DNA of 64,000 nucleotides from Candidatus Omnitrophota bacterium. GTDB lineage: Bacteria > Omnitrophota > Gorgyraeia > Tantalellales > Tantalellaceae. Shown in pieces: positions 19,845 to 44,349 of this stretch. The translations under genes and the position numbers were made by a program. Position 1 is the stretch's first letter. Each line of letters opens with the position of its first letter. Below the pieces are notes generated by a model that had not been told where the DNA came from, searched no databases, and saw only the letters and a program-made list of their open reading frames with translations. The stretch is taken from positions 11,430-75,429 of the forward strand of contig JBARQV010000015.1 in NCBI GenBank assembly GCA_049643885.1, given 5' to 3'.

Positions 19845-20197
19845 GCGAAAACAATAAAATCCTTCCCAACCTAAAATTTGGAAATGGGTCCCTTTGATCT
19901 TATTGTTTTTGCAATGCCGATTCCGCAGAATAACTAGGCGTTGTATGCAATGCAACGCCTAGTCAGGAAAGGGTAAATATCTATGATGGCGAATGCATGC
20001 CTGACGGACCATTACAAAAATTCAGCTTTTCCGGATATTTTAAGCTGAGGTTATCATGGCTATATACAATGCGTAGGCATGGCAACTGTCCGAGCCCCGA
20101 GCATTCCTGTAGCGAGGGGCGAGTTTTGCCATGTCAGCTTGAAATGCCCGGAAAAGCGTTAAGAATTTTTGTCGGGACGGAAGGCATGCATTCGCCG
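19845..20197 (+). repeat. Composite structured repeat, copy A: short palindromic arm module (19845-19912) plus ~210-bp core (about 19990-20197) bounded by inverted termini GGCGAATGCATGCC / GGCATGCATTCGCC
   Basis: About 88% identity to copies B and C. The ORF track's 68-aa ORF inside it is not conserved in copy B. Confidence 0.85.
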
Positions 20198-20285
20198 TTA
20201 TAGACATTTAACATAAGCAACGGGAAAAATGATGTCGCCGATAGAACAGCTCAAACTTCCGCTGGTCTTTGCGGTTTAAAAGGCG

Positions 20286-20314
20286 TTGATTTTGAGGTGA
20301 AAATCTGTTAAAAT
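20286..20314 (+). promoter_or_regulatory. Promoter TTGATT-N17-TAAAAT upstream of leuC
   Basis: Read directly. It lies about 25 nt before the RBS AAGGAG. Confidence 0.5.
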
Positions 20315-20338
20315 CTCACTTTAACTTAAGGAGATTCA

Positions 20339-21619
20339 ATGGGATATACGATAACGGAAAAGATCCTGCTTTCGCACGCGATCGGGGTCAAAGGGATCGC
20401 CCCGGGCGATTTCATAAGAACCAGGGTCGACATGTGCCTTGGGAACGATATCACCAGCCCCATCGCTATAAAAGAATTTTGCGAGCTGGGGGTGGATAAG
20501 GTTTTTAACCAGAACAAGATAGCTCTGGTGCCGGACCATTTCGTACCCGCCAAGGACATGAAAAGCGCTAACCAGGCCGCGTCTCTCAAAAAATTCGCGC
20601 AAAAATACGGTATCACTAATTATTTCGAAGTCGGGCGAATGGGTATTGAACACGTCTTACTGCCTGAAAGAGGGCTTGTCCTTCCTGGCGCTCTCATCAT
20701 AGGGGCTGATTCCCATACTTGCACCCATGGTGCGCTTGGCGCTTTCGCCACGGGTGTGGGAAGCACGGACCTTGCCTACGCCATGGCATTTGGAGAATGC
20801 TGGTTCAGGGTCCCCGAGACGATAAAGATCGTCTTCACGGGAAAGCCCAGGAAATGGGTCGGCGGCAAGGACTTGATACTGCACGTAATATCCGATATCG
20901 GTGTCTCCGGCGCCCTTTACAAGACCCTGGAGTTTACGGGCGATACCATTTCTGAGCTTTCCATGGATGACCGGTTCTCTATCTGCAATATGGCAATTGA
21001 AGCCGGGGCGAAGAACGGAATAGTCGAACCGGACAAAACGACTGAAAGATACGTCAAGACGGCGGTAAGAAAATATAAGCCCCCGCGTAAATCGTTTAAA
21101 ATGATAAAAAGCGATAAAGATGCCGTGTATGCCGACGTCAGGGAATATAATGTTTCCAAACTTGAACCGGTAGTTGCCAAGCCCCATCTGCCGTCAAACG
21201 GTGTTCCGGTAAGTACACTGAAGGATGTCAAAGTAGATCAGGTATTCATCGGATCATGCACCAACGGGAGGATCTCGGACCTCAAAACCGCGGCGTCCAT
21301 TCTTAAGAACAGAAAGGTCCATCCCCAGACGCGTTTGATCGTGATACCGGCCACGCAAGCGATCTACATGGAAGCTGTGAGGGAAGGGTATGTAGATGTA
21401 TTTATCCGCGCCGGAGGGGTCTTCTGCACGCCGACCTGCGGGCCGTGTTTGGGTGGTCACATGGGGATCCTGTCCGAGGGAGAGGTCGCGGTAGCGACTA
21501 CGAACCGCAATTTTGTCGGACGGATGGGACATCCGAAAAGTTTTGTTTATCTGTCCAACCCGGCTATCGCGGCCGCGAGCGCGGTCAAGGGAAAGATAGC
21601 GCATCCGTCGGATCTGTGA
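20339..21619 (+). CDS. leuC: 3-isopropylmalate dehydratase large subunit (aconitase family)
   Basis: Aconitase-family Cys ligands (GSCTNGR, CGPCLG) in the archaeal-type short LeuC architecture. Confidence 0.85.
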   Translation: MGYTITEKILLSHAIGVKGIAPGDFIRTRVDMCLGNDITSPIAIKEFCELGVDKVFNQNKIALVPDHFVPAKDMKSANQAASLKKFAQKYGITNYFEVGRMGIEHVLLPERGLVLPGALIIGADSHTCTHGALGAFATGVGSTDLAYAMAFGECWFRVPETIKIVFTGKPRKWVGGKDLILHVISDIGVSGALYKTLEFTGDTISELSMDDRFSICNMAIEAGAKNGIVEPDKTTERYVKTAVRKYKPPRKSFKMIKSDKDAVYADVREYNVSKLEPVVAKPHLPSNGVPVSTLKDVKVDQVFIGSCTNGRISDLKTAASILKNRKVHPQTRLIVIPATQAIYMEAVREGYVDVFIRAGGVFCTPTCGPCLGGHMGILSEGEVAVATTNRNFVGRMGHPKSFVYLSNPAIAAASAVKGKIAHPSDL

Positions 21620-21669
21620 CCCCACACTTCCGTGTGGGGAATGATACTACAGGCGGAAGCCTGTAGAGG
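21620..21669 (+). repeat. Double-hairpin intergenic repeat, copy 3
   Basis: CCCCACACTTCCGTGTGGGGAATGATACTACAGGCGGAAGCCTGTAGAGG sits between leuC and leuD. A second AGAGG follows before the ATG. Confidence 0.9.
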
Positions 21670-21684
21670 AAAAAGAGGAAAAAC

Positions 21685-22281
21685 ATGAAACTCAAAGGCA
21701 AAATCCATAAGTTCGGTAATAACATAAACACTGATGAGATAATTCCCGCCCGTTATCTCAATACTTGTGATCCGGGTGAACTGGCGAAACACTGTATGGA
21801 AGACGCTGCCCCGCAATTCGCTAAAAACGTCCAGGAAGGGGATATAATCGTCGCGGGCGAAAATTTCGGATGCGGTTCCAGCCGGGAGCACGCACCGATC
21901 GCCATAAAAGCTTCCGGGGTTTCCTGTGTAGTGGCCAAAAGTTTCGCCAGGATATTTTACAGGAACGCCATTAATATCGGCCTTCCGATCTTCACGAGTC
22001 CGGAAGCCGTGAAGGACCTGAAAAACAACGACACGGCTGAAGTGGACGCCACCAAGGGGACTGTCACCAAATCCGGGAGAAAGAAAGCTTATGATGCGGA
22101 AGTGTTCCCTGAATTCATAAAAGAGATCATCAGGAGCGGAGGGTTGATGGCTTACGCGAAAAAGATGGGACCCGCGGAAGAGCCAAAACCCGTTAAAAGA
22201 AAGAAGAAAGCTGTGCAAAGAAAGAAGATCGTCAAAAGAAAGGCCAAAACTACCAAGAAGACAAAGAAGCACAAGAAATGA
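21685..22281 (+). CDS. leuD: 3-isopropylmalate dehydratase small subunit with a ~35-aa lysine-rich C-terminal tail
   Basis: LeuD core (GENFGCGSSREHAP) followed by the tail ...EEPKPVKRKKKAVQRKKIVKRKAKTTKKTKKHKK. Confidence 0.85.
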   Translation: MKLKGKIHKFGNNINTDEIIPARYLNTCDPGELAKHCMEDAAPQFAKNVQEGDIIVAGENFGCGSSREHAPIAIKASGVSCVVAKSFARIFYRNAINIGLPIFTSPEAVKDLKNNDTAEVDATKGTVTKSGRKKAYDAEVFPEFIKEIIRSGGLMAYAKKMGPAEEPKPVKRKKKAVQRKKIVKRKAKTTKKTKKHKK

Positions 22282-22283
22282 CA

Positions 22284-22369
22284 AATATGTCATCCCGGAC
22301 GGCCGAAAGGCCGATCCGAGATCAAATAATAATTTTTATGTGATCCCCGCTTTCGCGGGGATGACATAC
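22284..22369 (+). repeat. TIR element family 2, copy 1 (AATATGTCATCCCGG ... CCCCGCTTTCGCGGGGATGACATAC)
   Basis: Perfect outer inverted repeat ATGTCATCCC/GGGATGACAT with an inner hairpin. It lies between leuD and leuB. Confidence 0.8.
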
Positions 22370-22390
22370 TATTAAGTAATAGGAGGATAA

Positions 22391-23443
22391 ATGTACAAGA
22401 TAGCGGTTTTGCCGGGGGACGGTACAGGACCAGAGGTCATAAGGGAAGGGCTTAAGGTCTTGGACGCGGTCGCGGAAAAGACGGGTTTCAAATATGAAAA
22501 GATAATGTATGACCTGGGAGGCGAGCGCTACAAAAAAACGGGTGAAGTGCTCCCGGGCAGCGTCCTTGAGGAGATAAAGACGGCTGACGCTATCTATCTG
22601 GGAGCTATAGGCCATCCGGACGTGAAGCCCGGCATCCTGGAGAAGGGGCTTCTTTTGAGCTTAAGGTTCGCGCTTGACCAATATATAAATCTGCGCCCCA
22701 TTAAATTATATCCGGGCGTGGACTGTCCCCTGAAAGATAAGGGCCCTGAGGACATCGACTTTGTTGTCGTGCGCGAGAATACCGAAGGCCTTTACACGGG
22801 AACGGGCGGCCTGCTGAAAGAAGGCACTAAGGACGAGGTGGCCATACAGACTTCGGTGAATACTTATAAAGGCGTGGAAAGATGCCTCAGGTACGCGTTT
22901 GAATACGCTAAGAAACGCAACAAGGATAAACAGCTCACGCTTGTCGGCAAGACGAATGTCTTGACCTACGCGTTCGGTTTGTGGGAGAGGACTTTTGAAA
23001 AAATGTCTGAAGATTACCCGGACATCAAAACGGGCTACGCTCATGTCGATGCTACCTGCATGTGGATGGTGAAAAATCCGGAATGGTTTGACGTCATCGT
23101 GACGGATAACATGTTCGGTGACATCATCACAGATCTTGGCGCCATGATCCAGGGCGGTATGGGTATAGCCGCTGGCGGAAACATCAACCCGGAAGGCGTT
23201 TCCATGTTTGAACCGATCGGAGGCTCGGCGCCCAAGTATACGGGGAAGAACGTCATCAATCCGCTCGCCGCGATCTGTGCCGGTGGTATGATGCTGGAGG
23301 TGCTCGGCGAGCAGAAAGCCGCGGATCTCGTGGAGAAGGCGGTGATGTCGGTCACTGTCAAAAAGCTGAAGAGTCTTTCGGCCGGCAAGATGGGATATTC
23401 GACGCAGGAAGTCGGGGATCTCGTAGTGGAGGCGCTGGGATAG
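22391..23443 (+). CDS. leuB: 3-isopropylmalate dehydrogenase
   Basis: MYKIAVLPGDGTGPEV; NMFGDIITD; isocitrate/isopropylmalate dehydrogenase fold. Confidence 0.9.
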   Translation: MYKIAVLPGDGTGPEVIREGLKVLDAVAEKTGFKYEKIMYDLGGERYKKTGEVLPGSVLEEIKTADAIYLGAIGHPDVKPGILEKGLLLSLRFALDQYINLRPIKLYPGVDCPLKDKGPEDIDFVVVRENTEGLYTGTGGLLKEGTKDEVAIQTSVNTYKGVERCLRYAFEYAKKRNKDKQLTLVGKTNVLTYAFGLWERTFEKMSEDYPDIKTGYAHVDATCMWMVKNPEWFDVIVTDNMFGDIITDLGAMIQGGMGIAAGGNINPEGVSMFEPIGGSAPKYTGKNVINPLAAICAGGMMLEVLGEQKAADLVEKAVMSVTVKKLKSLSAGKMGYSTQEVGDLVVEALG

Positions 23444-23529
23444 AGCTTGCATCTTTTCGGGACAGGTTTCCTGTAGTAGTGTAAACTGTCGGCTGAAACC
23501 AGTCCCGCTATTTTTATAAAGGATAATAA

Positions 23530-24576
23530 ATGATGAAGAAGAAAGCGAAATATAATGTTGGGATAATGGGCGTGACCGGTGCAGTCGGCGGCCAGTTTCT
23601 CTCGATACTGGAACAAAGGGACTTTCCGGTGGATGAGCTCCGTCCTCTGGCCAGCGAAAGGTCAAAAGGCAAAAAGGTAGTATTCCGCGGGCAAGAGATC
23701 GATGTGCAAATACTCGGCGAAGATTCGTTCGGAGGCATCGACATCGTCCTAGCCTCAGCGGGCGCCTCGCGGAGCAAGGAGTTTTTACCCCACGCGGTCC
23801 GGGCCGGTGCTGTCTGCGTAGACAATTCCAGCGCGTTCAGGATGGATAAAGATGTTCCTTTGGTCGTTCCGGAGGTCAATCCCCATGCCATAAGAGCGCA
23901 TCAAGGCATCATCGCAAATCCCAACTGCTCCACCATCCAGATGGTCCTCCCGTTGTGCGCTATCCATAAAGCCGCGTCGATCGAACGAGTGGTAGTTACC
24001 ACTTTTCAGTCGGTTTCGGGCGCCGGGCAGAAAAACATCCTAGAACTCGAAAGCCAGGCAGTGCACCTGGGCAATAAAAAGTCCCATTACGGTATCGGGG
24101 AACATACCGTTCCCCGGGAGATGGTTAAAGAGTTTGCACATCAGATCGCGTACAATCTCATACCCCATATCGATGTCTTCCAGGACAACCTTTATACCAA
24201 GGAAGAGATGAAGATGGTGAACGAGATCCGCAAGATCATGGAGATTCCGGATCTTGCCGTTACTGCTACCTGTGTCCGTGTTCCCGTTTATTACGCTCAT
24301 TCCGAAAGCGTGAACGTGGAGACCGGCAAGAAGCTCGGTCCAGGACAGGCCAAAGATATCCTTGAAAAATTTCCCGGAATAAAGGTCGTTGACGACCCGG
24401 CAGGTTCAAAGTATCCCATGCCTATTTTCGTGGAAGGTAGGGATGAAGTCTTTGTCGGAAGGATCAGGGAAGATGAGTCCGTCGAAAACGGCCTCAACAT
24501 GTGGGTCGTCGCGGACAACCTCAGAAAAGGCGCCGCCCTCAACGCCATACAGATCGCCGAACACCTTATCAAGTAA
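23530..24576 (+). CDS. asd: Aspartate-semialdehyde dehydrogenase
   Basis: GVTGAVGG; NPNCSTIQMV active-site cysteine motif. Confidence 0.9.
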   Translation: MMKKKAKYNVGIMGVTGAVGGQFLSILEQRDFPVDELRPLASERSKGKKVVFRGQEIDVQILGEDSFGGIDIVLASAGASRSKEFLPHAVRAGAVCVDNSSAFRMDKDVPLVVPEVNPHAIRAHQGIIANPNCSTIQMVLPLCAIHKAASIERVVVTTFQSVSGAGQKNILELESQAVHLGNKKSHYGIGEHTVPREMVKEFAHQIAYNLIPHIDVFQDNLYTKEEMKMVNEIRKIMEIPDLAVTATCVRVPVYYAHSESVNVETGKKLGPGQAKDILEKFPGIKVVDDPAGSKYPMPIFVEGRDEVFVGRIREDESVENGLNMWVVADNLRKGAALNAIQIAEHLIK

Positions 24577-24664
24577 TATGTCATCCCGGACGAGCCCGCA
24601 GGGATCGAGCCGGGACCACATAATATTTTTATTTGATCCCGGCTTTTACCGGGATGACATACAT
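24576..24664 (+). repeat. TIR element family 2, copy 2
   Basis: AATATGTCATCCCGGACGAGCC...GATCCCGGCTTTTACCGGGATGACATAC. The inner stem sequence differs from copy 1 (GCCGGG vs GCGGGG) but pairing is kept. The element ends at the truA start codon. Confidence 0.8.
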
Positions 24665-25405
24665 ATGCGCAACATAAAGCTTACCATTTCTTACGACGGG
24701 ACCGATTTTAACGGTTGGCAGGTCCAGCCTAACGGCAGGACAGTCCAGGAAGAGGTAGAAAAAGCGATCGGCAAAGTTTTCGGCAAGCCTCACCGTTTAT
24801 ACGCGGCCAGCCGGACAGATGCCGGTGTCCATGCCGAAAGACAAGTCGCGAATTTCAAGACCGGTCTTTCTTCGACCATACCCACTGGCAAGATACCTGC
24901 CGCGTTGAACGCTTATCTTCCCGATGAGGTAGCCATAAAAAGTGCCGAGGAAGTCCCGCCGGGATTCCATTCCCGTTTTGACGCGAAAAGCAAGCATTAC
25001 AGGTATTACATTATCAACAGCAGGCAGCGCGACCCTTTCGGTGAAAAATACACCTGGCGGGTGCCGTATGAACTTGATGTCTCTTTGATGAAAAAAGAAG
25101 CGAAAGTGCTCGTAGGCAGGCATGATTTCAAGTCTTTCCAGGCTAAAGACAAAAGAGAAAGGCATTCCGTGCGCAGGATATTCTATATCAACGTGGCGAA
25201 AAAAAAGTCGTTCCTGACGATAGACATTGAAGCTGACGGTTTTCTTTTTAATATGGTCCGCAACATCATGGGTACCCTGGTGGATATCGGCAGGGGATAC
25301 CTTCCCGGGGGAAGCATGCGGAGCATACTCAAGAAAAAGGACCGGACCCAGGCCGGCCCCACCGCTCCCCCTAAAGGCCTTTTTCTTGTCGATGTAAAAT
25401 ATTGA
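24665..25405 (+). CDS. truA: tRNA pseudouridine(38-40) synthase
   Basis: MRNIKLTISYDGTDFNGWQVQ...RTDAGVHA (catalytic Asp). The track start at 24389 reads through the asd 3' end and the repeat. Confidence 0.9.
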   Translation: MRNIKLTISYDGTDFNGWQVQPNGRTVQEEVEKAIGKVFGKPHRLYAASRTDAGVHAERQVANFKTGLSSTIPTGKIPAALNAYLPDEVAIKSAEEVPPGFHSRFDAKSKHYRYYIINSRQRDPFGEKYTWRVPYELDVSLMKKEAKVLVGRHDFKSFQAKDKRERHSVRRIFYINVAKKKSFLTIDIEADGFLFNMVRNIMGTLVDIGRGYLPGGSMRSILKKKDRTQAGPTAPPKGLFLVDVKY

Positions 25406-25483
25406 TTTTTTTATTTTCCCCTCTTGACAAGTATACATACTTATAATAAACTTGTATCATACTTGTTAAACAGGAGCTTTTCA

Positions 25484-25654
25484 ATGAAGAGGAAGTACCG
25501 TTTCAGGTTTTTTGCCACAGTTTCGGACAGGGGCCAGATATTCATTCCCAAGGTCCTGCAAGAGTATTTTAGTATCCGCAGGCGGGACAAGGTGGAGTTT
25601 GAAATAACCGATGATGGGAAGGTCATTTTCAAGAAAAAGGAGGGAGAAGAATGA
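25484..25654 (+). CDS. 56-aa AbrB/MazE/SpoVT-fold (swapped-hairpin) protein, first of three coupled mini-genes
   Basis: TVSDRGQIFIPKVLQEYFSIRRRDKVEFEITDDGKVIFKK aligns with AbrB KVDELGRVVIPIELRRTLGIAEKDALEIYVDDEKIILKK. SD AGGAG is 7 nt upstream. Ends KKKEGEE*. Confidence 0.7.
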   Translation: MKRKYRFRFFATVSDRGQIFIPKVLQEYFSIRRRDKVEFEITDDGKVIFKKKEGEE

Positions 25655-25803
25655 GGCGAAAGAAAAAGAAGCACCTTCATAAGGTGTCGATCCCAGAAGC
25701 GTTAGAAAACAGGTTCGGGAGTTACAACCGAAAGAAAATCCAATTTCTTGTGACTTCGGACGGAGATATTCTCATGCGGAAGAAGAAGGAGGGGAGAAGA
25801 TGA
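25651..25803 (+). CDS. 50-aa paralog of the AbrB-fold mini-protein, second of three
   Basis: The ATGA overlaps the upstream stop. SD AAGGAGGG lies within the upstream coding sequence. KVSIPEALENRF...KKIQFLVTSDGDILMRKKKEGRR parallels ORF-a. Confidence 0.6.
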   Translation: MRRKKKKHLHKVSIPEALENRFGSYNRKKIQFLVTSDGDILMRKKKEGRR

Positions 25804-25970
25804 AAAAGGGACATGTACACAAAGTTACGATCAACGAAAAACGCCGCACGAACAAAAAGCGCAATGATCTTTTGAGGAAGGGCGTATCCACCGACAGCCT
25901 CCAGGCAACATTTAATAATTATTACCGGGGCCCGCTCAAAGCGCTGTACAAGAGGATCATGAAGGGGTAA
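25800..25970 (+). CDS. 56-aa basic mini-protein, third of three; shares the HxHKV(S/T)I N-terminus with the second
   Basis: ATGA overlap with the second mini-gene. SD AAGGAGGGG. MKKGHVHKVTINEKRRTNKK... has a divergent C-terminus. Confidence 0.5.
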   Translation: MKKGHVHKVTINEKRRTNKKRNDLLRKGVSTDSLQATFNNYYRGPLKALYKRIMKG

Positions 25971-25983
25971 ATAAGGATTATCC

Positions 25984-26012
25984 TTGACAAAAATCCCCAA
26001 ATATGTTAATTT
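25984..26012 (+). promoter_or_regulatory. Promoter TTGACA-N17-(TGt)TAATTT upstream of rplM
   Basis: Read directly. Extended -10 arrangement TGnTAATTT, as upstream of the Na/Pi transporter gene. Confidence 0.45.
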
Positions 26013-26065
26013 TACTCCTCTAAAAGTTAATGCTCTCGCTGTAAGTAGCGACATAGAGGAGAATT

Positions 26066-26497
26066 ATGAAAACAACCAGGTTGAAAAAGCATCAGGAAGC
26101 TACGCATGACTGGTACGTTGTCGACGTGATGGGCAAGGTTCTCGGCAGGGCAGCTACAGAGATAGCATCGTTACTGAAAGGGAAGAACAGGGTAGATTTT
26201 ACGCCTCATGTTGACAGCGGTTCGGGAGTAATAGTCCTGAACTGTGACAAGCTGAGGGTTACCGGAAAGAAGGGGCTCCAAAAAGTATATAAACGATATT
26301 CGGGTTATCCCAGCGGGCAGAAGGAAACCGCTCACAAGAAAATGATGGAGAAAGACCCCAAATACGTGATCAGGCATGCGGTAAAGGGGATGCTTCCAAA
26401 GAGCAAGCTTGGAGCAAGGATGCTCAAACGTTTAAAATTGTATACGGGCGACACCCATCCCCACGCCGCCCAGTTGCCGAAGGAAAAGAAAATATAA
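26066..26497 (+). CDS. rplM: 50S ribosomal protein L13
   Basis: WYVVDVMGKVLGRAATEIASLLKGK. Confidence 0.95.
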   Translation: MKTTRLKKHQEATHDWYVVDVMGKVLGRAATEIASLLKGKNRVDFTPHVDSGSGVIVLNCDKLRVTGKKGLQKVYKRYSGYPSGQKETAHKKMMEKDPKYVIRHAVKGMLPKSKLGARMLKRLKLYTGDTHPHAAQLPKEKKI

Positions 26498-26515
26498 GGA
26501 AGAGGTATCCGTAAG

Positions 26516-26917: not shown

Positions 26918-26949
26918 ACACGAAATTACATTTTTTAACTTTAGTAGAA

Positions 26950-26978
26950 GGTCGCTTAAAAAGCGGCCTTTTTTATTT
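26950..26978 (+). terminator. Rho-independent terminator after rpsI
   Basis: GGTCGC-TTAAAAA-GCGGCC followed by TTTTTTATTT. Confidence 0.7.
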
Positions 26979-27015
26979 GAGGAGCACGCGACGGGATTAC
27001 CTTGCATCTTCTAGT

Positions 27016-27492
27016 TGCAAAAACAGTAAAATCTTTCCCAACCAAATTTTTTAACGGCATTTTTCTAACTTTCAAAGGGCGTAAAAGAAACTCGCCCCCG
27101 CTGCTTTGCTTTGCGAATCCAAGCGACGGGGGTTCAAACAACTTTTACGCTTTTTTCCTTCAAAAGTTAGAAAAATGCCTAAAATTTGTAAATGGGGCCC
27201 TTTAATTTTATTGTTTTTGCGAATAGATGAGCAGTTTCTTAACTATGATTATTTTCAAACACATGGCAAATGTCACCGCCGGCGAATATATGCCTGACGG
27301 ACCATTTCAAAAATTTAGTTTTTCCGGGCATTTTAAGCTGAAGTTGTCGTGGCTACTAAACATGTGTAGGCATGGCAAATGTCCGAGCCCCGAGTATTTC
27401 TATTAACGAGGGGCGAGTTTTGCCATGTCAGTTTAAAATGTCCCGAAAAGCGTTAAGAATTTTTGTCGGGCCGGAAGGCATATATCCGCCGG
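27016..27492 (+). repeat. Composite structured repeat, copy B: ~205-bp near-palindromic arm module (27016-27220) plus ~210-bp core (27283-27492) with inverted termini CCGGCGAATATATGCC / GGCATATATCCGCCGG
   Basis: Aligned by eye to copies A and C. The reading frame that is open in copy A is closed here by TAA. Confidence 0.85.
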
Positions 27493-27543
27493 TCTACTGT
27501 CACGCGACTTATGTTCGCTTCGCTTCATAAGTTACGGTTTCAC

Positions 27544-27573
27544 TTGACAGGGTAGGGCTGTTTACTTTATACT
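27544..27573 (+). promoter_or_regulatory. Promoter TTGACA-N18-TATACT upstream of argC
   Basis: Read directly. About 50 nt upstream of the start codon. Confidence 0.5.
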
Positions 27574-30723: not shown

Positions 30724-30730
30724 CGTAACA

Positions 30731-30782
30731 CCCCACACTTCCGTGTGGGGAATGATACTATACAGGCGGAAGCCTGTAGAGG
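30731..30782 (+). repeat. Double-hairpin intergenic repeat, copy 4
   Basis: CCCCACACTTCCGTGTGGGGAATGATACTATACAGGCGGAAGCCTGTAGAGG. The AGAGG is 6 nt upstream of the argD ATG. Confidence 0.9.
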
Positions 30783-30788
30783 TGACAT

Positions 30789-37604: not shown

Positions 37605-38476
37605 TAATGTGGAAGGGGTCATATGTGGCTTTGGCAACGCCGTTTGAAAACGGCAAAGTCGATGAAAAAAAATATAGAAAACTCATCGAGTTTCATATTA
37701 ACAATGGCACGGATGGGCTTGTTCCATGCGGGTGTACAGGGGAAGCGGCTACCCTGACCACTACCGAACAAAAACATCTTATAAAAGTAGCGGTGGAAAC
37801 TTCGGACAAACGAGTCCCGGTAATCGCTGGCACGGGGTCTAACTGCACCCAGGAAGCGATAGAACTGACATCCTATGCCAGGAAAGCCGGGTGCGACGGG
37901 GCTTTGATAATAACCCCTTATTACAATAAACCGACGCCTGAGGGCCAGTACCGGCATTATGTGGAGATCGCGAAGGCCACGGATATCCCTATCATGCTCT
38001 ACAATGTACCTTCGCGTACGGGCATCTCGCTTCTTCCTGAGACTGTCGCCAGACTGTCAAAGATCGATAATATTGAAGCCATCAAAGAAGCTGCTGGCAG
38101 CGTGCAGCAGGTCATGGACATCAGGGCTCTTTGTGATATCGCCATAATGAGCGGTGACGACGCCATGACCCTGCCGTTCATGACGGTAGGAGCGACGGGA
38201 GTTGTGAGCGTCGTGGCAAATATTATACCGGGAAAAGTCCATGAACTGGTCCAGTTTTTTTTGGACGGCCATATCGACCGTAGCAGGGAGATACATTTCG
38301 AGATAATGGATCTTTGCAAAGCGATGTTTATCGAGACCAACCCCATACCGGTGAAGACCTCGATGGCCATGATGGACATGATCAATGAGGAGTGGCGCCT
38401 GCCGCTCTGCGAAATGAGCGACGCGGGCAGGACCAGGCTCGAGCAGGTACTGAGAAGGTATGGACTAGTTAAATAA
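37601..38476 (+). CDS. dapA: 4-hydroxy-tetrahydrodipicolinate synthase
   Basis: VPCGCTGEAATL; YNVPSRTG; the KEA Schiff-base lysine region. Confidence 0.9.
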   Translation: MIMWKGSYVALATPFENGKVDEKKYRKLIEFHINNGTDGLVPCGCTGEAATLTTTEQKHLIKVAVETSDKRVPVIAGTGSNCTQEAIELTSYARKAGCDGALIITPYYNKPTPEGQYRHYVEIAKATDIPIMLYNVPSRTGISLLPETVARLSKIDNIEAIKEAAGSVQQVMDIRALCDIAIMSGDDAMTLPFMTVGATGVVSVVANIIPGKVHELVQFFLDGHIDRSREIHFEIMDLCKAMFIETNPIPVKTSMAMMDMINEEWRLPLCEMSDAGRTRLEQVLRRYGLVK

Positions 38477-38508
38477 GTGATGATACTTAGACGCTTAATG
38501 GAGGCCTT

Positions 38509-39228
38509 ATGATCCGTATAGGGATAAGCGGTATCGCGGGCAAGATGGGGCAGCGCATCGCCGACCTCGCCATGAAGGAAGGGGATATTCGCATAGCCTG
38601 CGCTCTTGAGAAAGAAGGCAGTCCGATGATCGGGAATAGCGATTACGGCGTTGTCGTTACTTCCGAGGTTGAAAGCGCCTGCGATGATATTGATTGCCTG
38701 ATAGAGTTCACTTCACCCGAAGCGACTTTACGTCATGTCGATATCTGCGTTAAAAAAAAGATCCCCATGGTCATAGGCACGACGGGGCTGGGCCCCGAAG
38801 GCGAGAACAGGATCGCGGAAGCCGCAAAAAAAATACCTGTTGTTTTCTCACCGAACATGGCGATCGGGGTGAATCTTCTCTTTAACCTGGTAAAGGAAGC
38901 TGCGAGGGTCCTGGAAAAAGATTTTGAGATAAAGATCGACGAGACCCATCATGTCCATAAGAAGGACGCTCCAAGCGGCACGGCAAAAATGATAGCGAAG
39001 GTCATCAGGGAATCCTCCGGGGTCGATGCCCCTATTGAAGCTTTTCGGGAGGGCGAGGTCATCGGAAATCACGGTATCATTTTCGACGGGAAATATGAAA
39101 AACTTGAGATAAGGCATGACGCCAAATCGCGGGATGTTTTCGCGGCCGGAGCCATCGAAGCCGCCAAATTTGTCGCAGGAAAAGCTCCCGGGTTATATAG
39201 CATGGCCGATGTCCTGGGCCTAACATGA
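38509..39228 (+). CDS. dapB: 4-hydroxy-tetrahydrodipicolinate reductase
   Basis: IRIGISGIAGKMG; ETHHVHKKDAPSGTA. Confidence 0.9.
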   Translation: MIRIGISGIAGKMGQRIADLAMKEGDIRIACALEKEGSPMIGNSDYGVVVTSEVESACDDIDCLIEFTSPEATLRHVDICVKKKIPMVIGTTGLGPEGENRIAEAAKKIPVVFSPNMAIGVNLLFNLVKEAARVLEKDFEIKIDETHHVHKKDAPSGTAKMIAKVIRESSGVDAPIEAFREGEVIGNHGIIFDGKYEKLEIRHDAKSRDVFAAGAIEAAKFVAGKAPGLYSMADVLGLT

Positions 39229-39245
39229 TTATGGATCCGTGGGGG

Positions 39246-39344
39246 TGGGTGGCGCGACAGTGTCCGAGCACCGCACAAGCCAGCGGCGCGGAGGCGCGCA
39301 GGACACTGAGCGATAGGACCCGCACACTGGATTGTGGATAATGG
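39246..39344 (+). repeat. Repeat family D, copy 1 (GGTGGCGCGACAGTGTCCGAGC...CAGGACACTGAGCGATAGGACCCGCACACTGGATTGTGGATAATGG)
   Basis: Shares its 5' and 3' blocks with the copy upstream of panC. Internal CAGTGTCC/GGACACTG inverted repeat. Confidence 0.75.
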
Positions 39345-39363
39345 ATGTTGGAGGAGGAGATAC

Positions 39364-40533
39364 ATGCAAATAGATTTTGCGGAGCGTTTGAAAAAGTTAC
39401 CCCCATATCTTTTCGAGGAGATCGACAAAGCGAAACAGAAGGCCGTGGATGAGGGCCGTCCGGTTATAGACCTTGGTGTCGGTGACCCGGACAAGCCTAC
39501 TCCGGATTTCATAATAAAGAAGCTGCACAAGGCCAGCCTTGACCCTTCAACTCATAATTACGCCTTGAATAAAGGGCTGAGAAGCCTGCGTGAAGCTATG
39601 GCCTCTTGGTATAGATCACGTTTTGGTATAGATCTTGATCCGGATACGGAAGTCCTTCCTCTTCTGGGTTCGAAAGAGGGGATAGCGCATATACCTCTGG
39701 CTTTTATAAATCCGGACGACGAAGTGCTTATACCCGATCCGGGGTACCCTCCTTATAATTCAGGCTCGATCTTTGCGGGGGCGAAAGTCCACCGCATGCC
39801 CCTTCTGGCGGAGAACGCGTTTCTCCCGGACCTGGAAAGTATAGACGCGGGAACGGCCGGCAGGTGTAAACTCATGCATATAAATTATCCTAACAATCCT
39901 ACCGGAGCCGTATGCGACAAGGGTTTTTATGAAAAAGTCGCGGCGTTCGCCGAGAAGTATGGTATCATCGTGTGTTCGGACGCGGCTTATACCGAGATGA
40001 GCTATGATAATTATTCTCCTCCCAGCTTTCTTGAAGTGCCGGGCGCGAAGGAAGTAGGGATCGAATTTCATTCTCTTTCAAAGACTTTCAACATGACTGG
40101 ATGGAGAGTAGGCATGGCGGTAGGCAACGCGAAAGTCCTGGAGGGGCTTGCGAAAGTCAAATCTAACATAGATTCAGGGATATTTACCGCTATCCAGCTG
40201 GCTTCAATAGAAGCTTTAGATCACGCGAAGAAAGTGAAGAAAGAGTTGAACCAGATGTACAGGGACAGGCGCGACACGCTTGTCGACGGGCTGAATAAAG
40301 CCGGGTGGAAAGTACAGAAACCCCTGGCCACGTTTTATATATGGGCGCCTGTCTTCGGGGGGTACGATTCGACCGGTCTGGCCAAAGCCCTGATGGAAAA
40401 GGCGGACATCGTTGTTACTCCCGGGGTCGGTTTCGGCCAGCACGGGGAAGGTTATGTGCGGATGGCGATAACAAGAGACAAATCGAAGCTGGAAGAAGCT
40501 GTCCGGCGTATAAAGAAAGCGTTTTTCAGCTGA
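39364..40533 (+). CDS. dapL: Class-I PLP aminotransferase, probably LL-diaminopimelate aminotransferase
   Basis: RLKKLPPYLFEEID N-terminus. The PLP lysine region SLSKTFNMTGWRVG. Context: dapF, dapA and dapB are adjacent and there is no dapD/dapE. RBS GGAGGAGG. Confidence 0.6.
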   Translation: MQIDFAERLKKLPPYLFEEIDKAKQKAVDEGRPVIDLGVGDPDKPTPDFIIKKLHKASLDPSTHNYALNKGLRSLREAMASWYRSRFGIDLDPDTEVLPLLGSKEGIAHIPLAFINPDDEVLIPDPGYPPYNSGSIFAGAKVHRMPLLAENAFLPDLESIDAGTAGRCKLMHINYPNNPTGAVCDKGFYEKVAAFAEKYGIIVCSDAAYTEMSYDNYSPPSFLEVPGAKEVGIEFHSLSKTFNMTGWRVGMAVGNAKVLEGLAKVKSNIDSGIFTAIQLASIEALDHAKKVKKELNQMYRDRRDTLVDGLNKAGWKVQKPLATFYIWAPVFGGYDSTGLAKALMEKADIVVTPGVGFGQHGEGYVRMAITRDKSKLEEAVRRIKKAFFS

Positions 40534-40535
40534 AA

Positions 40536-41015
40536 ATGGCGATCATCTTTGCAGGTATAGGGTCGAATATCGGCGACAAAAAGGCTAACCTTGATGAAGC
40601 GATAAAACGGTTAGAGGAGGAAGAAGAGATAAGGATCACGGCAAAATCCTCCTTTTACGAGACCCGCCCTGTCGGCGGTCCGCGGCAGGAAGACTACTTG
40701 AACGGTGTGATAAAGATCGAAACCTCTCTTTCCCCTGAAAGCTGCCTCGTCGTGTTCAAGGCAATAGAAAAAGATATGGGCCGTGTCCCGGCCGGCCGCA
40801 GCCACCCGAGGGCAATAGACCTTGATATCTTGTTCTATGAAGACCTGGTAATGGAAACCGGTGAGCTTGCGATCCCCCACCCGCGGCTGCAGGAAAGATA
40901 TTTTGTTCTGCGTGGGCTTGCCGAGATAGCACCGGACGCTGTGCACCCGGTGTTGGGGAAGACGGTGAGGGAATTGTACGAGGGGATATTGGATAATGGA
41001 GTTAGTAGTTTGTAG
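40536..41015 (+). CDS. folK: 2-amino-4-hydroxy-6-hydroxymethyldihydropteridine pyrophosphokinase
   Basis: MAIIFAGIGSNIGD; YETRPVGGP; RAIDLDIL. 159 aa. The track's 40305 ORF is an upstream read-through in the same frame. Confidence 0.85.
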   Translation: MAIIFAGIGSNIGDKKANLDEAIKRLEEEEEIRITAKSSFYETRPVGGPRQEDYLNGVIKIETSLSPESCLVVFKAIEKDMGRVPAGRSHPRAIDLDILFYEDLVMETGELAIPHPRLQERYFVLRGLAEIAPDAVHPVLGKTVRELYEGILDNGVSSL

Positions 41016-41040
41016 TTAGATTCGTGGGGGGCAGGTGGTG

Positions 41041-41245
41041 CGACAGTGTCCGAATAGAGTTCAAAGCAGTTTGCGGTGTAAAAGCATAGTGCAGTATGTC
41101 CCCATACAGGGAGGATCCACACCGGGCGGAGGGGCCCTGGCAGGGAACATACTGCACTGTACAGCTTGCACCCGGGCACAGCACAAATGAAATGTGGATG
41201 CGCTCAGGATACTGAGCGACAGGATCCGCACACTGGATGTTGGAT
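41041..41245 (+). repeat. Repeat family D, copy 2, carrying a nested ~110-bp hairpin insertion (AGTGCAGTATGTCCCC...GGGAACATACTGCACT)
   Basis: The blocks GGTGGTGCGACAGTGTCCGA and CAGGATACTGAGCGACAGGATCCGCACACTGGATGTTGGATATG match copy 1. The 3' block overlaps the panC start. Confidence 0.75.
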
Positions 41246-42094
41246 ATGAGAGTGATAACGAAGATAGATGACATGAAGAGATACTCGCGGGAAGCGAGAA
41301 AAGAGGGCAAGTCGATAGGTCTTGTGCCTACCATGGGTTTCCTGCACGAAGGGCACATGAGCCTGGTAAGGGCGGCTGGTGAGGAGTGCGATGTAGTTGT
41401 GCTGAGCATTTTCGTCAACCCCGTCCAGTTCGGTCCTGACGAGGATTATAAAAAGTACCCCCGCGATATGGAAAGGGATAAAAAGATAGCCGAAGAGACA
41501 GGAGTGGATCGCATTTTCGCTCCGGGAGTTGATGAGATGTATCCGGACGGATACGCGACGTATGTCGAGCCTGAAGGTCACATGGCTTCTATCCTTTGCG
41601 GGAAGTCCCGCCCGGGGCATTTTAAGGGGGTGGATACCGTTGTGGCCAAGCTTTTCAATATCGTGTCACCGGGCAAAAGTTACTTTGGACAGAAAGACGC
41701 TCAACAGGCGGTGATCATCAGGCAGATGGTGAAGGACCTGAACATGAACACCGAAATACGGGTGATGCCGATAGTGCGGGAAGATGACGGCCTGGCTGCC
41801 AGTTCGCGTAATGCCTATCTTACCGGAGATGAAAGACGTCAGGCTCTCAGGTTGTATAATTCTCTAAAAAAAGCAGAGAAGCTGGTTGCTGAAGGTGAAC
41901 TTTTGGCAGGGAAGATCAAAAAAGAAATAGAAAAGGTCCTGGTAGAAGGGGAAGATATAAGGATCGATTATATCGAAGTCGTCGATGCGGAAACGTTAGA
42001 ACCGGTCGAGAATGTGAGAGATAACGCATTAGTGGCCGTGGCAGCTTTTGTCGGGAACACAAGGTTGATCGATAACACAGTGGTAAGGATATAA
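41237..42094 (+). CDS. panC: Pantoate--beta-alanine ligase
   Basis: [15 protein letters not shown] (HIGH motif); the start may instead be ATG 41246. Confidence 0.9.
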
Positions 42095-42096
42095 TT

Positions 42097-43044
42097 ATGA
42101 AACCTGTACAATTTGACGCGAAATATAAAGAACACCTGCAGCGAAAGATAGCGGATCTGAGAGAAGAAAAGGACGCGCTGATCGTGGCCCACAACTACCA
42201 GCGCGACGAGATCCAGGAGATAGCCGACATCACCGGCGATTCTTATGCCCTGGCTCGCGAGGTCACTAAATCCAGGCATAAAGTCGTTGTCTTTTGCGGG
42301 GTGAAATTCATGGCTGAAAGCGCTTCCATCCTCAACCCGGAAAAGACCATACTGCTCCCGGTCGAGGAAGCGGGATGCCCCCTGGCAGAGATGGCCACCG
42401 TGGAAAAGCTCCGGCAGAAAAAAGAAGAATATCCGGAAGCAGCAGTGGTGTGTTACGTGAACTCCACGGCAGCGGTCAAAGCGGAAAGCGATATATGCTG
42501 CACTTCTTCAAATGCCATCGAGATCGTGAGATCCCTCAAGGAAGACAAGATCATATTTGTCCCGGACAAGAACCTCGGCCGCTATGTCAGGGAACGCGTG
42601 CCGGAGAAGGAGATCATACCGTGGGAGGGATACTGCGTCGTGCACATGAGACTGACCAGGGAAGAGGTCCTGAAGACGAAAGAACTCCATCCCGAAGCCG
42701 AGTTCATAGCTCATCCGGAATGCCGGAAAGAGGTGCTGGAACTGGCGGATTACATAGGGAGCACCGCCGGCATGATAAAGTACGTCAGGGAATGCCCCAG
42801 GAGCGAATTCATCATAGGGACCGAGACGGGCATTATTTATAAATTGAAAAGAGATAACCCCGACAAGAAATTTTACATACCCACGGAACAATTCGTGTGC
42901 GCCAACATGAAGCTTACGACGCTGGGCTGGCTGGCGAGGTCCCTCGAACAGATGGTCTACAAAATAGAGGTCCCTGAAGAGATCGCCGCAAAGGCCCGCG
43001 GGACATTGGAACGGATGCTGGAAGTGATGGAGAGTAAAAAATGA
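42097..43044 (+). CDS. nadA: Quinolinate synthase A
   Basis: Three-fold repeat with Cys ligands; IVAHNYQ. Confidence 0.9.
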   Translation: MKPVQFDAKYKEHLQRKIADLREEKDALIVAHNYQRDEIQEIADITGDSYALAREVTKSRHKVVVFCGVKFMAESASILNPEKTILLPVEEAGCPLAEMATVEKLRQKKEEYPEAAVVCYVNSTAAVKAESDICCTSSNAIEIVRSLKEDKIIFVPDKNLGRYVRERVPEKEIIPWEGYCVVHMRLTREEVLKTKELHPEAEFIAHPECRKEVLELADYIGSTAGMIKYVRECPRSEFIIGTETGIIYKLKRDNPDKKFYIPTEQFVCANMKLTTLGWLARSLEQMVYKIEVPEEIAAKARGTLERMLEVMESKK

Positions 43045-43853
43045 AAAGGAAGACGATAGGGATCATAGGTTGCGGAGTAATAGGTTCGGCGCTTGCCGAG
43101 GACGCGGATAAAAACCTCAAGGACCACATAGAAAGGATCGTCCTTTTCGACGTGGATCCGCAGAAAAGCAGCACGCTTGTCCGGGGTCTTTCAGGCGCAG
43201 TAGTAGTCAGCGGCATCGACGAATTAGTGGCGGAGTCGGATCTTGTAATAGAAGCGGCCACACCCAAGGTTGTTGAGGAGATTCTCAAGGGTGCCATCTC
43301 CAGCAGCAAAGACGCGATGATAATGAGCGTGGGCGGGATCCTGGGCAATGAAGGACTTCTCTATGACGCCAGCGAGCGCGGGATCCGGATACTTGTTCCC
43401 TCAGGCGCGATAGCCGGGATAGACGCGGTGAACGCTGCCAAACAAGCAGGGATAGAGAGCGCGACGATCATTACCCGCAAACCTCCCGCGTCCATAAAAG
43501 GTGCACCTTATCTTTCGGAAAATAATATTGATGTTGATAACATAAAGGAAGAGACAGTCGTTTTCGAAGGTGACGCATTGGACGCGATAAAGGGTTTTCC
43601 CAAGAATATAAATGTTTCGGCTCTTCTTTCGATCGCCGGCATAGGCCCTGAAAAGACCAGGGTGAAGATAGTCATCTCTCCCGATTATACACGCAACACG
43701 CACGAAATAGAGATCAGGGGGAAGGCTGGGACCATCATGACCCGCACGGAGAATGTTCCATCGCCCGCCAATCCCAAAACCAGTTATCTCGCGGTACTTT
43801 CCGCCATAGCCTCGCTCAGAGGTTACTTCGATTCCGTACGCATCGGGACGTAG
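43041..43853 (+). CDS. nadX: L-aspartate dehydrogenase
   Basis: IGIIGCGVIGSALAE Rossmann motif. Thermotoga TM1643-type architecture. No nadB in the window. Confidence 0.8.
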   Translation: MKRKTIGIIGCGVIGSALAEDADKNLKDHIERIVLFDVDPQKSSTLVRGLSGAVVVSGIDELVAESDLVIEAATPKVVEEILKGAISSSKDAMIMSVGGILGNEGLLYDASERGIRILVPSGAIAGIDAVNAAKQAGIESATIITRKPPASIKGAPYLSENNIDVDNIKEETVVFEGDALDAIKGFPKNINVSALLSIAGIGPEKTRVKIVISPDYTRNTHEIEIRGKAGTIMTRTENVPSPANPKTSYLAVLSAIASLRGYFDSVRIGT

Positions 43854-43913
43854 TCATCAGAATTGCTTTCTGCAAAAACAACAAAATCCTTCTGTTTACC
43901 TTAAATGTCTTTC

Positions 43914-44349
43914 CGGCGAATATATGCCTTTCGTCCCGACAAAAATTCTTAACGCTTTTCGGAACATTTTAAACTGACATGGCAAAACTCGCCCCTCGTT
44001 ACAGGAATACTCGGGGCTCGGACAGTTGCCATGCCTACGCATGTTTAATAGCCATGACAACTTCAGCTTAAAATGCCCGGGAAAAGCTAAATTTTTGCAA
44101 TGGTCCGTCAGGCATATATTCACCGGCAGTGACATTTGCTATATCTACCAGCAAAAACAATAAAGTCAAAGGGACCCATTTCCAAATTTTAGGTATTTTT
44201 ATAACTTTCGAAGGGAAAAAGCGTAAAAGCCTGTTTGAGCCCCCGTCGCTTTGCGAAGCAAAACGACGGGGGCGAGTTCTTTTACGCCCTTTGAAAGTTA
44301 GAAAAATACCGTTAAAAAATTTGGTTGGGAAAGATTTTATTGTTTTTGC
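43914..44349 (-). repeat. Composite structured repeat, copy C (inverted orientation): core 43914-44126, near-perfect ~200-bp palindrome 44150-44349
   Basis: Reverse complement aligns with copies A and B. Central hairpin CCCCCGTCG-ctttgcgaagcaaaa-CGACGGGGG. Confidence 0.85.

Follow-up and report, generated by a model that had tools for sequence, protein, structure and literature searches.

Three copies of a folded, palindromic repeat lie between housekeeping genes in the 64,000-nucleotide stretch analysed here (the window), which comes from a Candidatus Omnitrophota MAG. Our preferred reading, held at about even confidence, is that they belong to a new family of transcribed, structured palindromic repeats resembling MITEs, ERIC and bcr1. 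The family is dispersed, non-coding and intergenic, and looks to be lineage-restricted. Each composite unit spans 350–480 bp and pairs a DNA palindrome, termed module 1, with a core of ~235 nt downstream of it. The units and their neighboring signals are as follows.

19844–19915, + strand: module 1 of copy A, outer arms only (GCGAAAACAATAAAATC ... GATCTTATTGTTTTTGC), a short hairpin without the inner palindrome
19933–19963, + strand: small hairpin CTAGGCGTTG...CAACGCCTAG within the module 1–core spacer of copy A
19975–20209, + strand: core of copy A, with rod P1, hairpin P2 (~20059–20078) and apical hairpin P3 (20077–20133)
20286–20314, + strand: leuC promoter TTGATT-17-TAAAAT, downstream of copy A
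26946–26972, + strand: intrinsic terminator of the rplM–rpsI operon, upstream of copy B
27016–27220, + strand: full module 1 of copy B, outer arms plus an inner palindrome of ~140 nt
27268–27497, + strand: core of copy B, with P3 at 27370–27427; the outer right arm GACATTT is missing
27544–27573, + strand: argC promoter TTGACA-18-TATACT, downstream of copy B
43872–43888, − strand: third module-1 arm of copy C, GATTTTGTTGTTTTTGC, 14 nt downstream of the core
43903–44137, − strand: core of copy C, with P3 at 43978–44034; in the opposite orientation to A and B, and antisense to the genes on both sides
44151–44350, − strand: full module 1 of copy C

The preliminary description had placed three copies at these positions, and all were found there, with inter-copy BLASTN E values of 1e-68 to 1e-151. 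Its estimate of ~88% core identity is fair against the values measured over 215 aligned columns (A–B, 85.1%; A–C, 87.4%; B–C, 93.5%). The core itself is real, but longer than the ~210 bp originally assigned to it, because the hairpin reaches the outer inverted repeat AAATRTC...GACATTT. The palindrome beside the core is also real, with a CCCCCGTCG/CGACGGGGG centre in copy C and only the outer arm pair in copy A. The third arm of copy C, which was missing from the earlier listing, is of a type that is the reverse complement of the left arm, and a similar arm follows the core of copy D, described below. The small hairpin of copy A is private to it, being absent from B and C. The three loci recur in independent assemblies (L031, L047, L048 and L042) and are therefore not an assembly artefact. 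The flanking genes were confirmed as those of an oppF-like ABC ATPase, ribosomal protein S9 and aspartate dehydrogenase.

A search of related assemblies yielded three further copies: A′ (the orthologue of A, in L035), D (in L033) and E (in L034). Together with A, B and C of the window, the total is six, distributed over five loci. Orthologous sites are filled in some genomes and empty in others. Relatives with 83–87% LeuC identity lack the core at the A locus, and L043 lacks it at the B locus too. Correspondingly, the oppF–leuC spacer is 563 bp here versus 72–282 bp in core-free relatives, and the rpsI–argC spacer is 710 bp versus 223 bp in L043. The contigs of sibling MAGs end inside the element, as they do with dispersed repeats. 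Since the L035 copy keeps a full module 1, A and A′ differ by a 136-nt internal indel, and their module 1–core spacers are only 68% identical. Their cores are 95.8% identical, versus 91–96% at third codon positions of the flanking genes, which shows no excess conservation of the core in this pair. The genome also holds other hairpin repeat families besides the core.

The ORFs embedded in these regions had been judged not to encode conserved proteins, and the searches bear this out. ORFs of 30–79 codons occur in several copies, and none is intact in every copy: the ORF of copy B stops early, and a 1-nt insertion in the apical loop disrupts its frames. When the ORF peptides of the core and module 1 were compared with 5.8 billion clusters, the sole matches were the translated copies D and C′; the same peptides, compared with 1.84 billion representatives, matched only D and spurious tandem-repeat proteins. 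Type I toxin mRNAs, such as hok/Sok and AapA/IsoA, are multi-copy, intergenic and ~200–400 nt long, with covarying pairing of their 5′ and 3′ ends. By this resemblance, and by the presence of ORFs in several copies, the element might be a small protein gene or a type I toxin–antitoxin locus, whose short peptide would be translated from a folded mRNA with paired ends. However, no conserved hydrophobic peptide is present, copy B has both a stop and a frameshift, and the homology consists of element translations only, so that this reading is effectively refuted and its probability is minute.

The core is more than a simple hairpin, and folds as a rod ending in a three-way junction. P1 is a long closing rod of ~60 bp with two tandem G·A/A·G sites, P2 is a short variable hairpin, and P3 is a near-invariant apical hairpin whose GCCCC/GGGGC stem is bracketed by two further tandem G·A/A·G sites. 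Two of these four 5′-GA/3′-AG sites show no variation across the six copies, and the other two almost none. The RNA MFE of the hairpin is −110.6 kcal/mol (z = −11.4 versus shuffles), far beyond chance. The selection on pairing proposed from three copies persists with the three added ones. Across 74 pairs, 98.3% of pair cells are standard, compared with 31–46% paired in slid-alignment controls; five pairs show compensatory change on both sides, and the observed covariation score was reached by none of 500 shuffles. Comparison of the clade (A, A′) with the clade (B, C, D, E) shows four double compensatory changes and five Watson–Crick/G·U switches, and no change that disrupts a pair. The mirrored two-base change reported for the termini was likewise recovered, as GAATGCATGCC/GGCATGCATTC in A versus GAATATATGCC/GGCATATAT(C/T)C in B and C, and corresponds to alignment columns 33/229 and 34/228.

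The proposal that these termini are a TIR pair recognised by a transposase is not supported. Both ends belong to the more variable portions of the core, and their changes compensate for each other. Variable columns make up 0.90 of the flanks, 0.52 of P2, 0.23 of the P1 pairs and only 0.10–0.12 of P3, so the interior of the core is more conserved than its ends, the reverse of a transposon defined by TIRs. In none of the copies was a target-site duplication found around the core or around the composite; the one candidate, CACGCGAC flanking copy B, does not abut the element and has an estimated chance expectation of ~2%. A classical MITE mobilised by a DDE transposase, with the core termini or the module-1 arms TGCAAAAAC...GTTTTTGCA as its TIRs and the fold as a by-product, is thus improbable. 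Its size, non-coding nature, inverted termini, intergenic location and empty sites do fit the description of a MITE (PMC3184786). The 480-bp composite of copy C is bounded by inverted module-1 arms with TG...CA ends, and the mismatch columns of module 1 are nearly symmetric (seven G·U, six A·C), as expected for the decay of duplex DNA. Yet such a MITE leaves the invariant tandem G·A sites and the strand asymmetry of the core unexplained. As had been stated for the window, no transposase is present in the ~80 kb of contig examined. In addition, neither a parent IS nor a transposase turned up in the contig, in phage and plasmid collections, or when 185,579 species genomes and JGI metagenomes were scanned for exact words; the phage and plasmid collections contain no match to the element itself either.

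The mismatches of the core are not symmetric. On the element strand its mismatch columns comprise 16 G·U and two A·C (binomial p = 0.0013), within a covariation set of six sequences from one narrow lineage, in which many G·U pairs reflect shared descent rather than separate events and the single copy in inverted chromosomal orientation adds only 1–2 private events. Module 1, which serves as an internal control, behaves unlike the core in this respect, its mismatches being strand-symmetric. Pairing amounts to 98.2% on the element strand and 91.2% on the complement, on which the tandem G·A sites would read as pyrimidine–pyrimidine mismatches. RNA MFE favours the element strand by 14–28 kcal/mol in all five full copies; for the core of copy A, the values are −119.5 kcal/mol for this strand and −102.9 kcal/mol for the complement. 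The G·U versus A·C asymmetry points to the folding of one single strand rather than to recognition of duplex ends. Selection therefore targets the fold of a single strand, the '+' strand of the element, and not ends bound by a transposase.

Such a strand could also be DNA. G·T is the least destabilising mismatch in single-stranded DNA, and DNA, too, accommodates tandem G·A pairs stably, so that a strand-specific fold tolerating both suits ssDNA hairpins too. The main rival is accordingly a non-autonomous ssDNA element, moved by an HUH/Y1-type enzyme (IS200/IS605, or RAYT/REPIN-like) or another ssDNA-acting enzyme encoded elsewhere, with the hairpin that one DNA strand forms, e.g., on the lagging-strand template, as its proposed recognition target. 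We consider this ssDNA element, together with this mode of recognition, unlikely, although several observations agree with it: the unconserved termini without target-site duplication, as in IS200/IS605 and REPIN systems, the filled and empty orthologous sites, and the other hairpin repeat families of the genome, which suggest an active hairpin-spreading process. Moreover, the folding strand of A and B is the positive-GC-skew strand, the sense orientation of the genes and the presumed lagging-strand template. Copy C, however, is oppositely oriented, and shares the replichore of A and B because the GC skew is constant across the window. No Y1/HUH gene was found in the ~80 kb of contig, the flanks show no conserved tetra- or pentanucleotide target, and a 235-nt rod that spans the whole element and includes a three-way junction does not resemble the short subterminal hairpins of IS200/IS605 or the 20–40-nt REPs. 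The strand gap of copy C is also far larger by RNA rules (~24 kcal/mol) than by DNA parameters (6.6 kcal/mol). The folded strand is hence most likely RNA rather than ssDNA.

The genomic context bears on how such an RNA would arise. The argC promoter is conserved in the relative L043, and the leuC promoter in element-free relatives. Neither a conserved sigma-70-like promoter upstream of the cores nor an intrinsic terminator after them was found. Copy B lies behind a strong terminator, and copies C and E are antisense to a gene able to read through into them; thus, co-transcription cannot account for every copy. The copies might instead be independent genes for trans-acting 'sibling' sRNAs of ~235 nt, with their own promoters, duplicated with neighboring sequence and non-mobile. 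The cores lie between a terminator and the promoter that follows it, with both orientations represented, which is a classic setting for sRNAs; a strand-specific fold and a conserved interior with invariant unpaired and G·A positions inside a covarying closing stem also agree with this reading. This is nevertheless rather doubtful, given that neither promoter nor terminator is conserved, that the sequence upstream of copy D is wholly different, and that the cores are tied to a palindromic DNA module, with empty sites in relatives and contig breaks within the element. Nor did Rfam give any match to the element, even at E = 10.

That negative result includes the covariance models of 6S, SRP and Y RNA, which resemble the element in that their 5′ and 3′ ends pair in a long closing helix, their interior contains non-canonical pairs and their apical domain is conserved. 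The element differs from them in being multi-copy, confined to a near-species-level lineage and missing in close relatives, and it lacks the bubble architecture of 6S RNA. Among mobile systems, REPIN/RAYT and the IS200/IS605-derived PATEs also combine strand-specific hairpin recognition with the absence of target-site duplications and no need for conserved duplex TIRs. The element, by contrast, forms a single long rod where those systems have two short subterminal hairpins, has no Y1/HUH gene in the sequence examined and no conserved flanking cleavage motif, and shows a strand asymmetry that fits RNA energetics better than DNA. Distinct palindromic modules in variable intergenic arrangements are found in the BIME/REP clusters of enterobacteria and the BOX elements of pneumococci. 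The modules of the element (outer arms, inner palindrome, core and third arm) are comparable, and here, too, entire modules can be lost, as A shows when set against its orthologue. However, they are much longer, no GTAG-type REP unit or RAYT gene occurs in the sequence examined, and the copy number is apparently low, with three copies in ~80 kb of this contig.

A close likeness is to bcr1 of the Bacillus cereus group and to ERIC (enterobacterial repetitive intergenic consensus) sequences, which are also dispersed, non-coding, imperfectly palindromic and intergenic, vary in presence or absence at orthologous sites in close relatives, and keep their long hairpins by compensation at the RNA level (PMC3184786). 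The element has no sequence or Rfam relationship to them, is longer (~235 nt versus 127–155), and has a three-way junction, four tandem G·A sites and a constant link to a second palindrome. It also lacks flanking direct repeats, which are of 5 bp in bcr1 and TA in the ERIC type, and its transcription is putative.

Collectively, the earlier view of a MITE-like element or a structured ncRNA family stands as regards repetition, pairing, non-coding nature and site polymorphism, and is not supported as regards its TIR alternative. We prefer to read the element as a transcribed structured repeat because a transcript is the simplest molecule that satisfies the single-strand fold. Transcribed palindromic repeats with RNA-level compensatory changes have a precedent in bcr1 and ERIC (PMC3184786). 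The element would be, or would once have been, mobile, with the core and its companion palindrome copied jointly as units of 350–480 bp into gene-free gaps between the end of a transcription unit and the next promoter. It is the fold of its '+' strand that is maintained, and not the sequence of its termini. The selected product would then be an RNA hairpin, plausibly serving either as an exceptionally stable duplex of the RNase III type or as an RNA bound by protein.

The window has a GC content of 50% with a positive GC skew throughout, and nearly all of its genes are housekeeping genes on the + strand; those read include the opp transporter, leu, asd, truA, rplM-rpsI, arg, dap, pan, nad, Na/Pi cotransporter, IMPDH, and dnaE genes. 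No tRNA genes were found in the window, which corresponds to a part of contig JBARSM010000022.1 (assembly GCA_049644745.1; 171,925 bp) beginning near contig position 7392. The preliminary description had reported three copies of a core element here, and all three are real. The core is present within the limits proposed for it, but it reaches further, to an outer inverted repeat AAATRTC...GACATTT. Each core is a hairpin element of ~235 bp and lies next to a DNA palindrome (module 1), giving a composite of 350–480 bp. Core identities among copies A, B, and C are 85–93.5%. These copies, those located in other assemblies, and the leuC gene are as follows.

19975–20209, + strand: core of copy A, in the oppF-leuC spacer, ending at the outer inverted repeat
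20339–21619: leuC, with a product of 426 aa identical to the LeuC annotated in a Candidatus Omnitrophota MAG
27268–27497, + strand: core of copy B, in the rpsI-argC spacer
43903–44137, − strand: core of copy C
6979–7221 of L033: copy D, downstream of tRNA-Ser, on an ENA scaffold of a metagenome in which the source organism is also present
Sibling MAG: copy C′, the locus of copy C cut by the contig end, found by the ORF-peptide search
L035, a close relative: copy A′, in the orthologous oppF-leuC spacer, found by a 22-mer scan of JGI metagenomes
L034, a related contig: copy E, truncated at the contig end, found by the same type of 22-mer scan of JGI metagenomes

Module 1 is a hairpin with outer arms GCAAAAACAATAAAATC... 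and ...GATTTTATTGTTTTTGC. In copies B and C these arms enclose a further palindrome of ~140 nt; in copy A, as had been noticed before, the module is reduced and the arms alone remain. The spacer between module 1 and the core (13–59 nt) is not conserved. The arms occur seven times in the window, exclusively beside cores, against a chance expectation of 0.43 matches, and a third arm lies 14 nt past the core of copy C. Since the alignment of copy B with copy C spans 479 nt at 84% identity, the composite is the unit of duplication. Copies A and A′ differ by a clean 136-nt indel corresponding to the inner palindrome of module 1, which is absent from A (at 19872–19873) and kept in L035 (minus strand, ~1215–1350). 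The equivalent segment of copy C has an ACC trinucleotide at each edge. Either deletion of the palindrome by microhomology or a nested insertion that duplicated 3 bp could account for this difference; the loss of whole modules is possible, as in A compared with A′.

In total, three copies were counted in the window and three more elsewhere (A′, D, and E), C′ being the same locus as C. D and C′ were found by translating the embedded ORFs and searching protein collections, where each gave one “protein” match that is itself a further copy. The earlier view that these ORFs are not conserved coding sequence holds: no ORF is intact in all copies, no homologues were found, and the peptides retrieved copies D and C′ alone in protein collections. 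An exhaustive phmmer search of 1.84 billion representatives returned, beyond D, just tandem-repeat proteins, whose scores are an artefact of summed weak repeats. The D scaffold (17.2 kb) has a GC content of 46%, compared with 49–50% for the window contig, and lacks a ~55-nt repeat family present in the window. It may derive from another organism in that sample, in which case the core would be common to separate genomes at 92% identity. Three related contigs, L034 (end 1290), L042 (end 3141), and L049 (end 2447), stop inside or just before the element, which is what a dispersed repeat predicts and suggests that those genomes hold more near-identical copies than the window does.

Filled and empty orthologous sites were confirmed. 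The cores are absent at oppF-leuC in three relatives (L043, L044, and L046) and at rpsI-argC in L043. The element is thus absent from relatives at 83–87% LeuC identity, and the oppF-leuC core is present in the closer relative L035. The oppF-leuC spacer measures 72 bp in L046, 187 bp in L044, and 282 bp in L043, and in the latter two it is taken up by a different palindrome family; the rpsI-argC spacer of L043 measures 223 bp. The relatives keep the rpsI terminator and, downstream of the respective sites, the leuC (TTGATT-17-TAAAAT) and argC (TTGACA-18-TATACT) promoters. These spacer comparisons and conserved flanking signals therefore show that the composites lie exactly in the interval from the end of one transcription unit to the next promoter. 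No remnant of the core or module 1 was detected in the empty-site relatives by nhmmer.

Beyond this lineage, a scan for exact 18-mers in 185,579 species genomes, a collection without the source genome, gave 30 matches, all single chance ones with no surrounding similarity. Four scans of viral contigs gave no core match, and the 13 matches of a module-1 arm 19-mer in such contigs are coding-sequence coincidences in four groups of phage contigs. BLASTN in distant mode found no match in plasmids and phages.

Alignment of the six copies, analyzed by RNAalifold and manual refinement, yielded three helices. P1 is a closing rod of ~55 pairs. It is followed by an 11-nt joining strand with alternative pairings, since there are two occurrences of CATGGC and one of GCCATG. 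P2, a short hairpin, has CUAY/GUAG as its closing pairs. P3, the apical hairpin, is formed by GCAUGGCAA/UUGCCAUG and then by CGAG-GCCCC-GAG ... CGAG-GGGGC-GAG. The minimum free energy of the core is −100 to −120 kcal/mol (z = −11.4), and 98.3% of the 422 pair cells hold standard pairs. A mirrored 2-nt change at the termini had been described earlier; in the six-copy alignment these two pairs are among five that changed on both sides. Covariation survives the added copies, the observed score being reached by 0 of 500 shuffles, and pairing falls to 31–46% in a partner-sliding control. Between the clade of A and A′ and that of B, C, D, and E, four double compensatory changes and five Watson–Crick/G·U switches were counted, with no disruptive change. 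Variable columns make up 0.90 of the flanks, 0.52 of P2, 0.23 of the P1 pairs, and 0.10–0.12 of P3, whether paired or not; the interior of the core is fixed and its ends are variable.

The most informative result is the asymmetry between strands. An A·C mismatch on the element strand corresponds to a G·U pair on the complement. Among paired columns, G·U occurs on the element strand in 16 (30 cells) and A·C in two (2 cells; binomial p = 0.0013), and the paired fraction is 98.2% for the element strand versus 91.2% for the complement. With RNA parameters, the element strand is more stable by 14–28 kcal/mol in every full copy, whereas with DNA parameters the strand difference for copy C is 6.6 kcal/mol. 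In addition, four internal 2 × 2 loops are tandem 5′-GA/3′-AG sites, two of them invariant in all six copies, which read as pyrimidine–pyrimidine mismatches on the complement. Module 1, a few bases off the core, has seven G·U versus six A·C columns; its decay resembles that of duplex DNA, which makes it an internal control (Fisher p = 0.043). A mutational strand bias could in principle generate a G·U excess, but this is unlikely: module 1 is symmetric, and copy C, inverted on the same replichore, has six G·U and no A·C, which argues against a replication-linked bias, although only one or two of its G·U pairs are private to this copy. Collectively, selection acts on the fold of one single strand.

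Folding of one strand fits a transcript or a single-stranded DNA intermediate, and it does not fit a transposase that binds duplex terminal inverted repeats. Indeed, the earlier proposal that the termini could be transposase-recognized repeats is not supported, since they are inverted repeats yet vary and covary between copies. Of the two remaining possibilities, RNA is favoured from the sequence: the folded strand would be a transcript, because the asymmetry is far larger under RNA energetics, because structured RNAs typically combine a conserved interior with a closing stem that covaries, and because transcribed palindromic repeats with compensatory changes, namely bcr1 and ERIC, have already been described (PMC3184786). 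In the present family, compensatory changes are seen together with G·U asymmetry. Other observations speak against RNA. The copies have neither a promoter nor a terminator in common, and no sigma-70-like site is shared; TTCAAA-15-TAAAAT in module 1 was rejected as a promoter, its spacer being too short and the site being deleted in A. Copy B lies behind a strong terminator, and copies C and E are antisense to the gene able to read into them. The A and A′ cores are 95.8% identical, with no excess over neighbouring third codon positions (91–96%). Because of these points, a mobile element that moves as a single-stranded DNA hairpin is a serious rival to the transcript.

Criteria for miniature inverted-repeat transposable elements (MITEs) were taken from Delihas 2011 (PMC3184786) and include a size under ~400 bp and multiple copies without a transposase gene. 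The family shares with MITEs its size, multi-copy occurrence without a conserved ORF, filled and empty orthologous sites, and a long stable stem-loop at the RNA level. Two defining features, target-site duplications and conserved terminal inverted repeats, are missing. No abutting direct repeat was found at core or composite in the flanks of six copies and the empty sites of L043, L044, and L046. The repeat CACGCGAC around composite B is not abutting, and ATCGGCGA/TCGCCGAT around composite A is an inverted rather than a direct pair; both are likely due to chance. The reported lack of a transposase extends to the ~80 kb of contig read, and no parent insertion sequence was found there or in any collection scan.

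Known families were also considered. Rfam 15 gave no match for the whole window at gathering thresholds and generic miRNA-hairpin models alone at E up to 10; its covariance models do not support 6S, SRP, or Y RNA, ribozymes, or OMEGA/HEARO RNAs. By eye, a hammerhead-like CUGANGA fails at position 9, and on inspection a K-turn would require the 3-nt bulge on the opposite side of the G·A pairs. A CS-6 motif (TAGCGA) like that of ssoA occurs in the apical loop of copy A alone and is unconserved. A type I toxin–antitoxin locus was rejected, as there is no conserved short hydrophobic toxin ORF. Integron attC sites are recognized by R″/R′ core sites, cassette context, and an IntI integrase; here, inspection of the termini revealed no RYYYAAC/GTTRRRY core sites, the neighbours are housekeeping operons, and there is no integrase. 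REP/REPIN elements with RAYT are 20–40-nt GC-rich hairpins with a conserved 5′ GTAG, often in inverted doublets, and flank a RAYT gene, unlike this single 235-nt rod; five of the six copies do have GTAG 5′ of P3, at best a coincidence for a 4-mer, and no Y1 transposase domain was found among the contig genes read. No literature on repeats or ncRNAs in Omnitrophota was found. The family belongs to a known kind, the bacterial intergenic palindromic repeats, and to none of the described families.

Other hairpin repeats occupy the same region. One of ~55 nt occurs at 2094–2147, 18181–18234, 21617–21670, and 30730–30783, all on the + strand, exactly in intercistronic gaps of + strand operons such as leuC/leuD and argB/argD. 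It consists of two tetraloop-type hairpins, CCCCACA-CUUCCG-UGUGGGG and CUACAGGC-GGAA-GCCUGUAG, and then AGAGG. Relatives lack this family, their leuC-leuD gap measuring just 10–14 nt. The leuC-leuD copy is followed by a duplication, GAGGAAAAA GAGGAAAAA, which may represent either a duplicated target or a ribosome-binding site carried by the element. Another family has ~85-nt units at 22286–22369 and 24577–24662, with arms also near 51238 and 58633, termini TATGTCATCCCGG...CCGGGATGACATA, and inner hairpins with GNRA or UUUC loops. It is common to more distant relatives (L043, 6957–7150; L044, 9561–9660) and there fills the oppF-leuC spacer that holds copy A here. In this lineage, intergenic gaps seem to act as hot spots for hairpin repeats of several unrelated kinds.

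Two small-ORF loci were also observed. Between truA and rplM (~25484–25970; 15146–15632 of contig L031) lie three consecutive ORFs of 56, 50, and 56 aa, the first with a weak match to the PrlF antitoxin; the cluster is kept in relatives with two or three ORFs. Just past the window end (contig ~73.8 kb; L036 15506–15778), a 90-aa ORF with a GIY-YIG nuclease domain lies in the 1-kb gap that separates a sigma-70 gene from thyX; the NCBI record calls this ORF, and the ENA assembly covering the region does not. A mobile nuclease is one possibility, and no core or module-1 sequence lies near it.

Collectively, these are real, non-coding, lineage-restricted repeats, and the evidence for a strand-specific fold is good within a small data set of six copies from one lineage. 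A tentative reading, which we consider possible rather than probable, is that the core represents an undescribed class of structured ncRNA from Omnitrophota. Such an RNA, of ~235 nt, would combine an RNase III-grade closing rod and a three-way junction with an apical hairpin that is invariant, sits between tandem sheared G·A pairs, and looks like a platform for protein binding; its genes would be spread in a mobile unit, possibly via an RNA or single-strand intermediate and hence without target-site duplication. On present evidence no general principle is changed. Hairpin repeats do affect MAG assembly, as contigs break there, as well as operon annotation. To our knowledge, Omnitrophota have no cultured model and almost no described non-coding elements. 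If true, the strand-specific fold would provide a clean case in which evolutionary signal separates neighbouring palindromes, one showing duplex-like decay and the other kept as a folded single strand, and it would add a structured-RNA or hairpin-repeat family from this phylum. At least three unrelated families of hairpin repeats fill intergenic gaps in this lineage, which hints at a hairpin-spreading mechanism.
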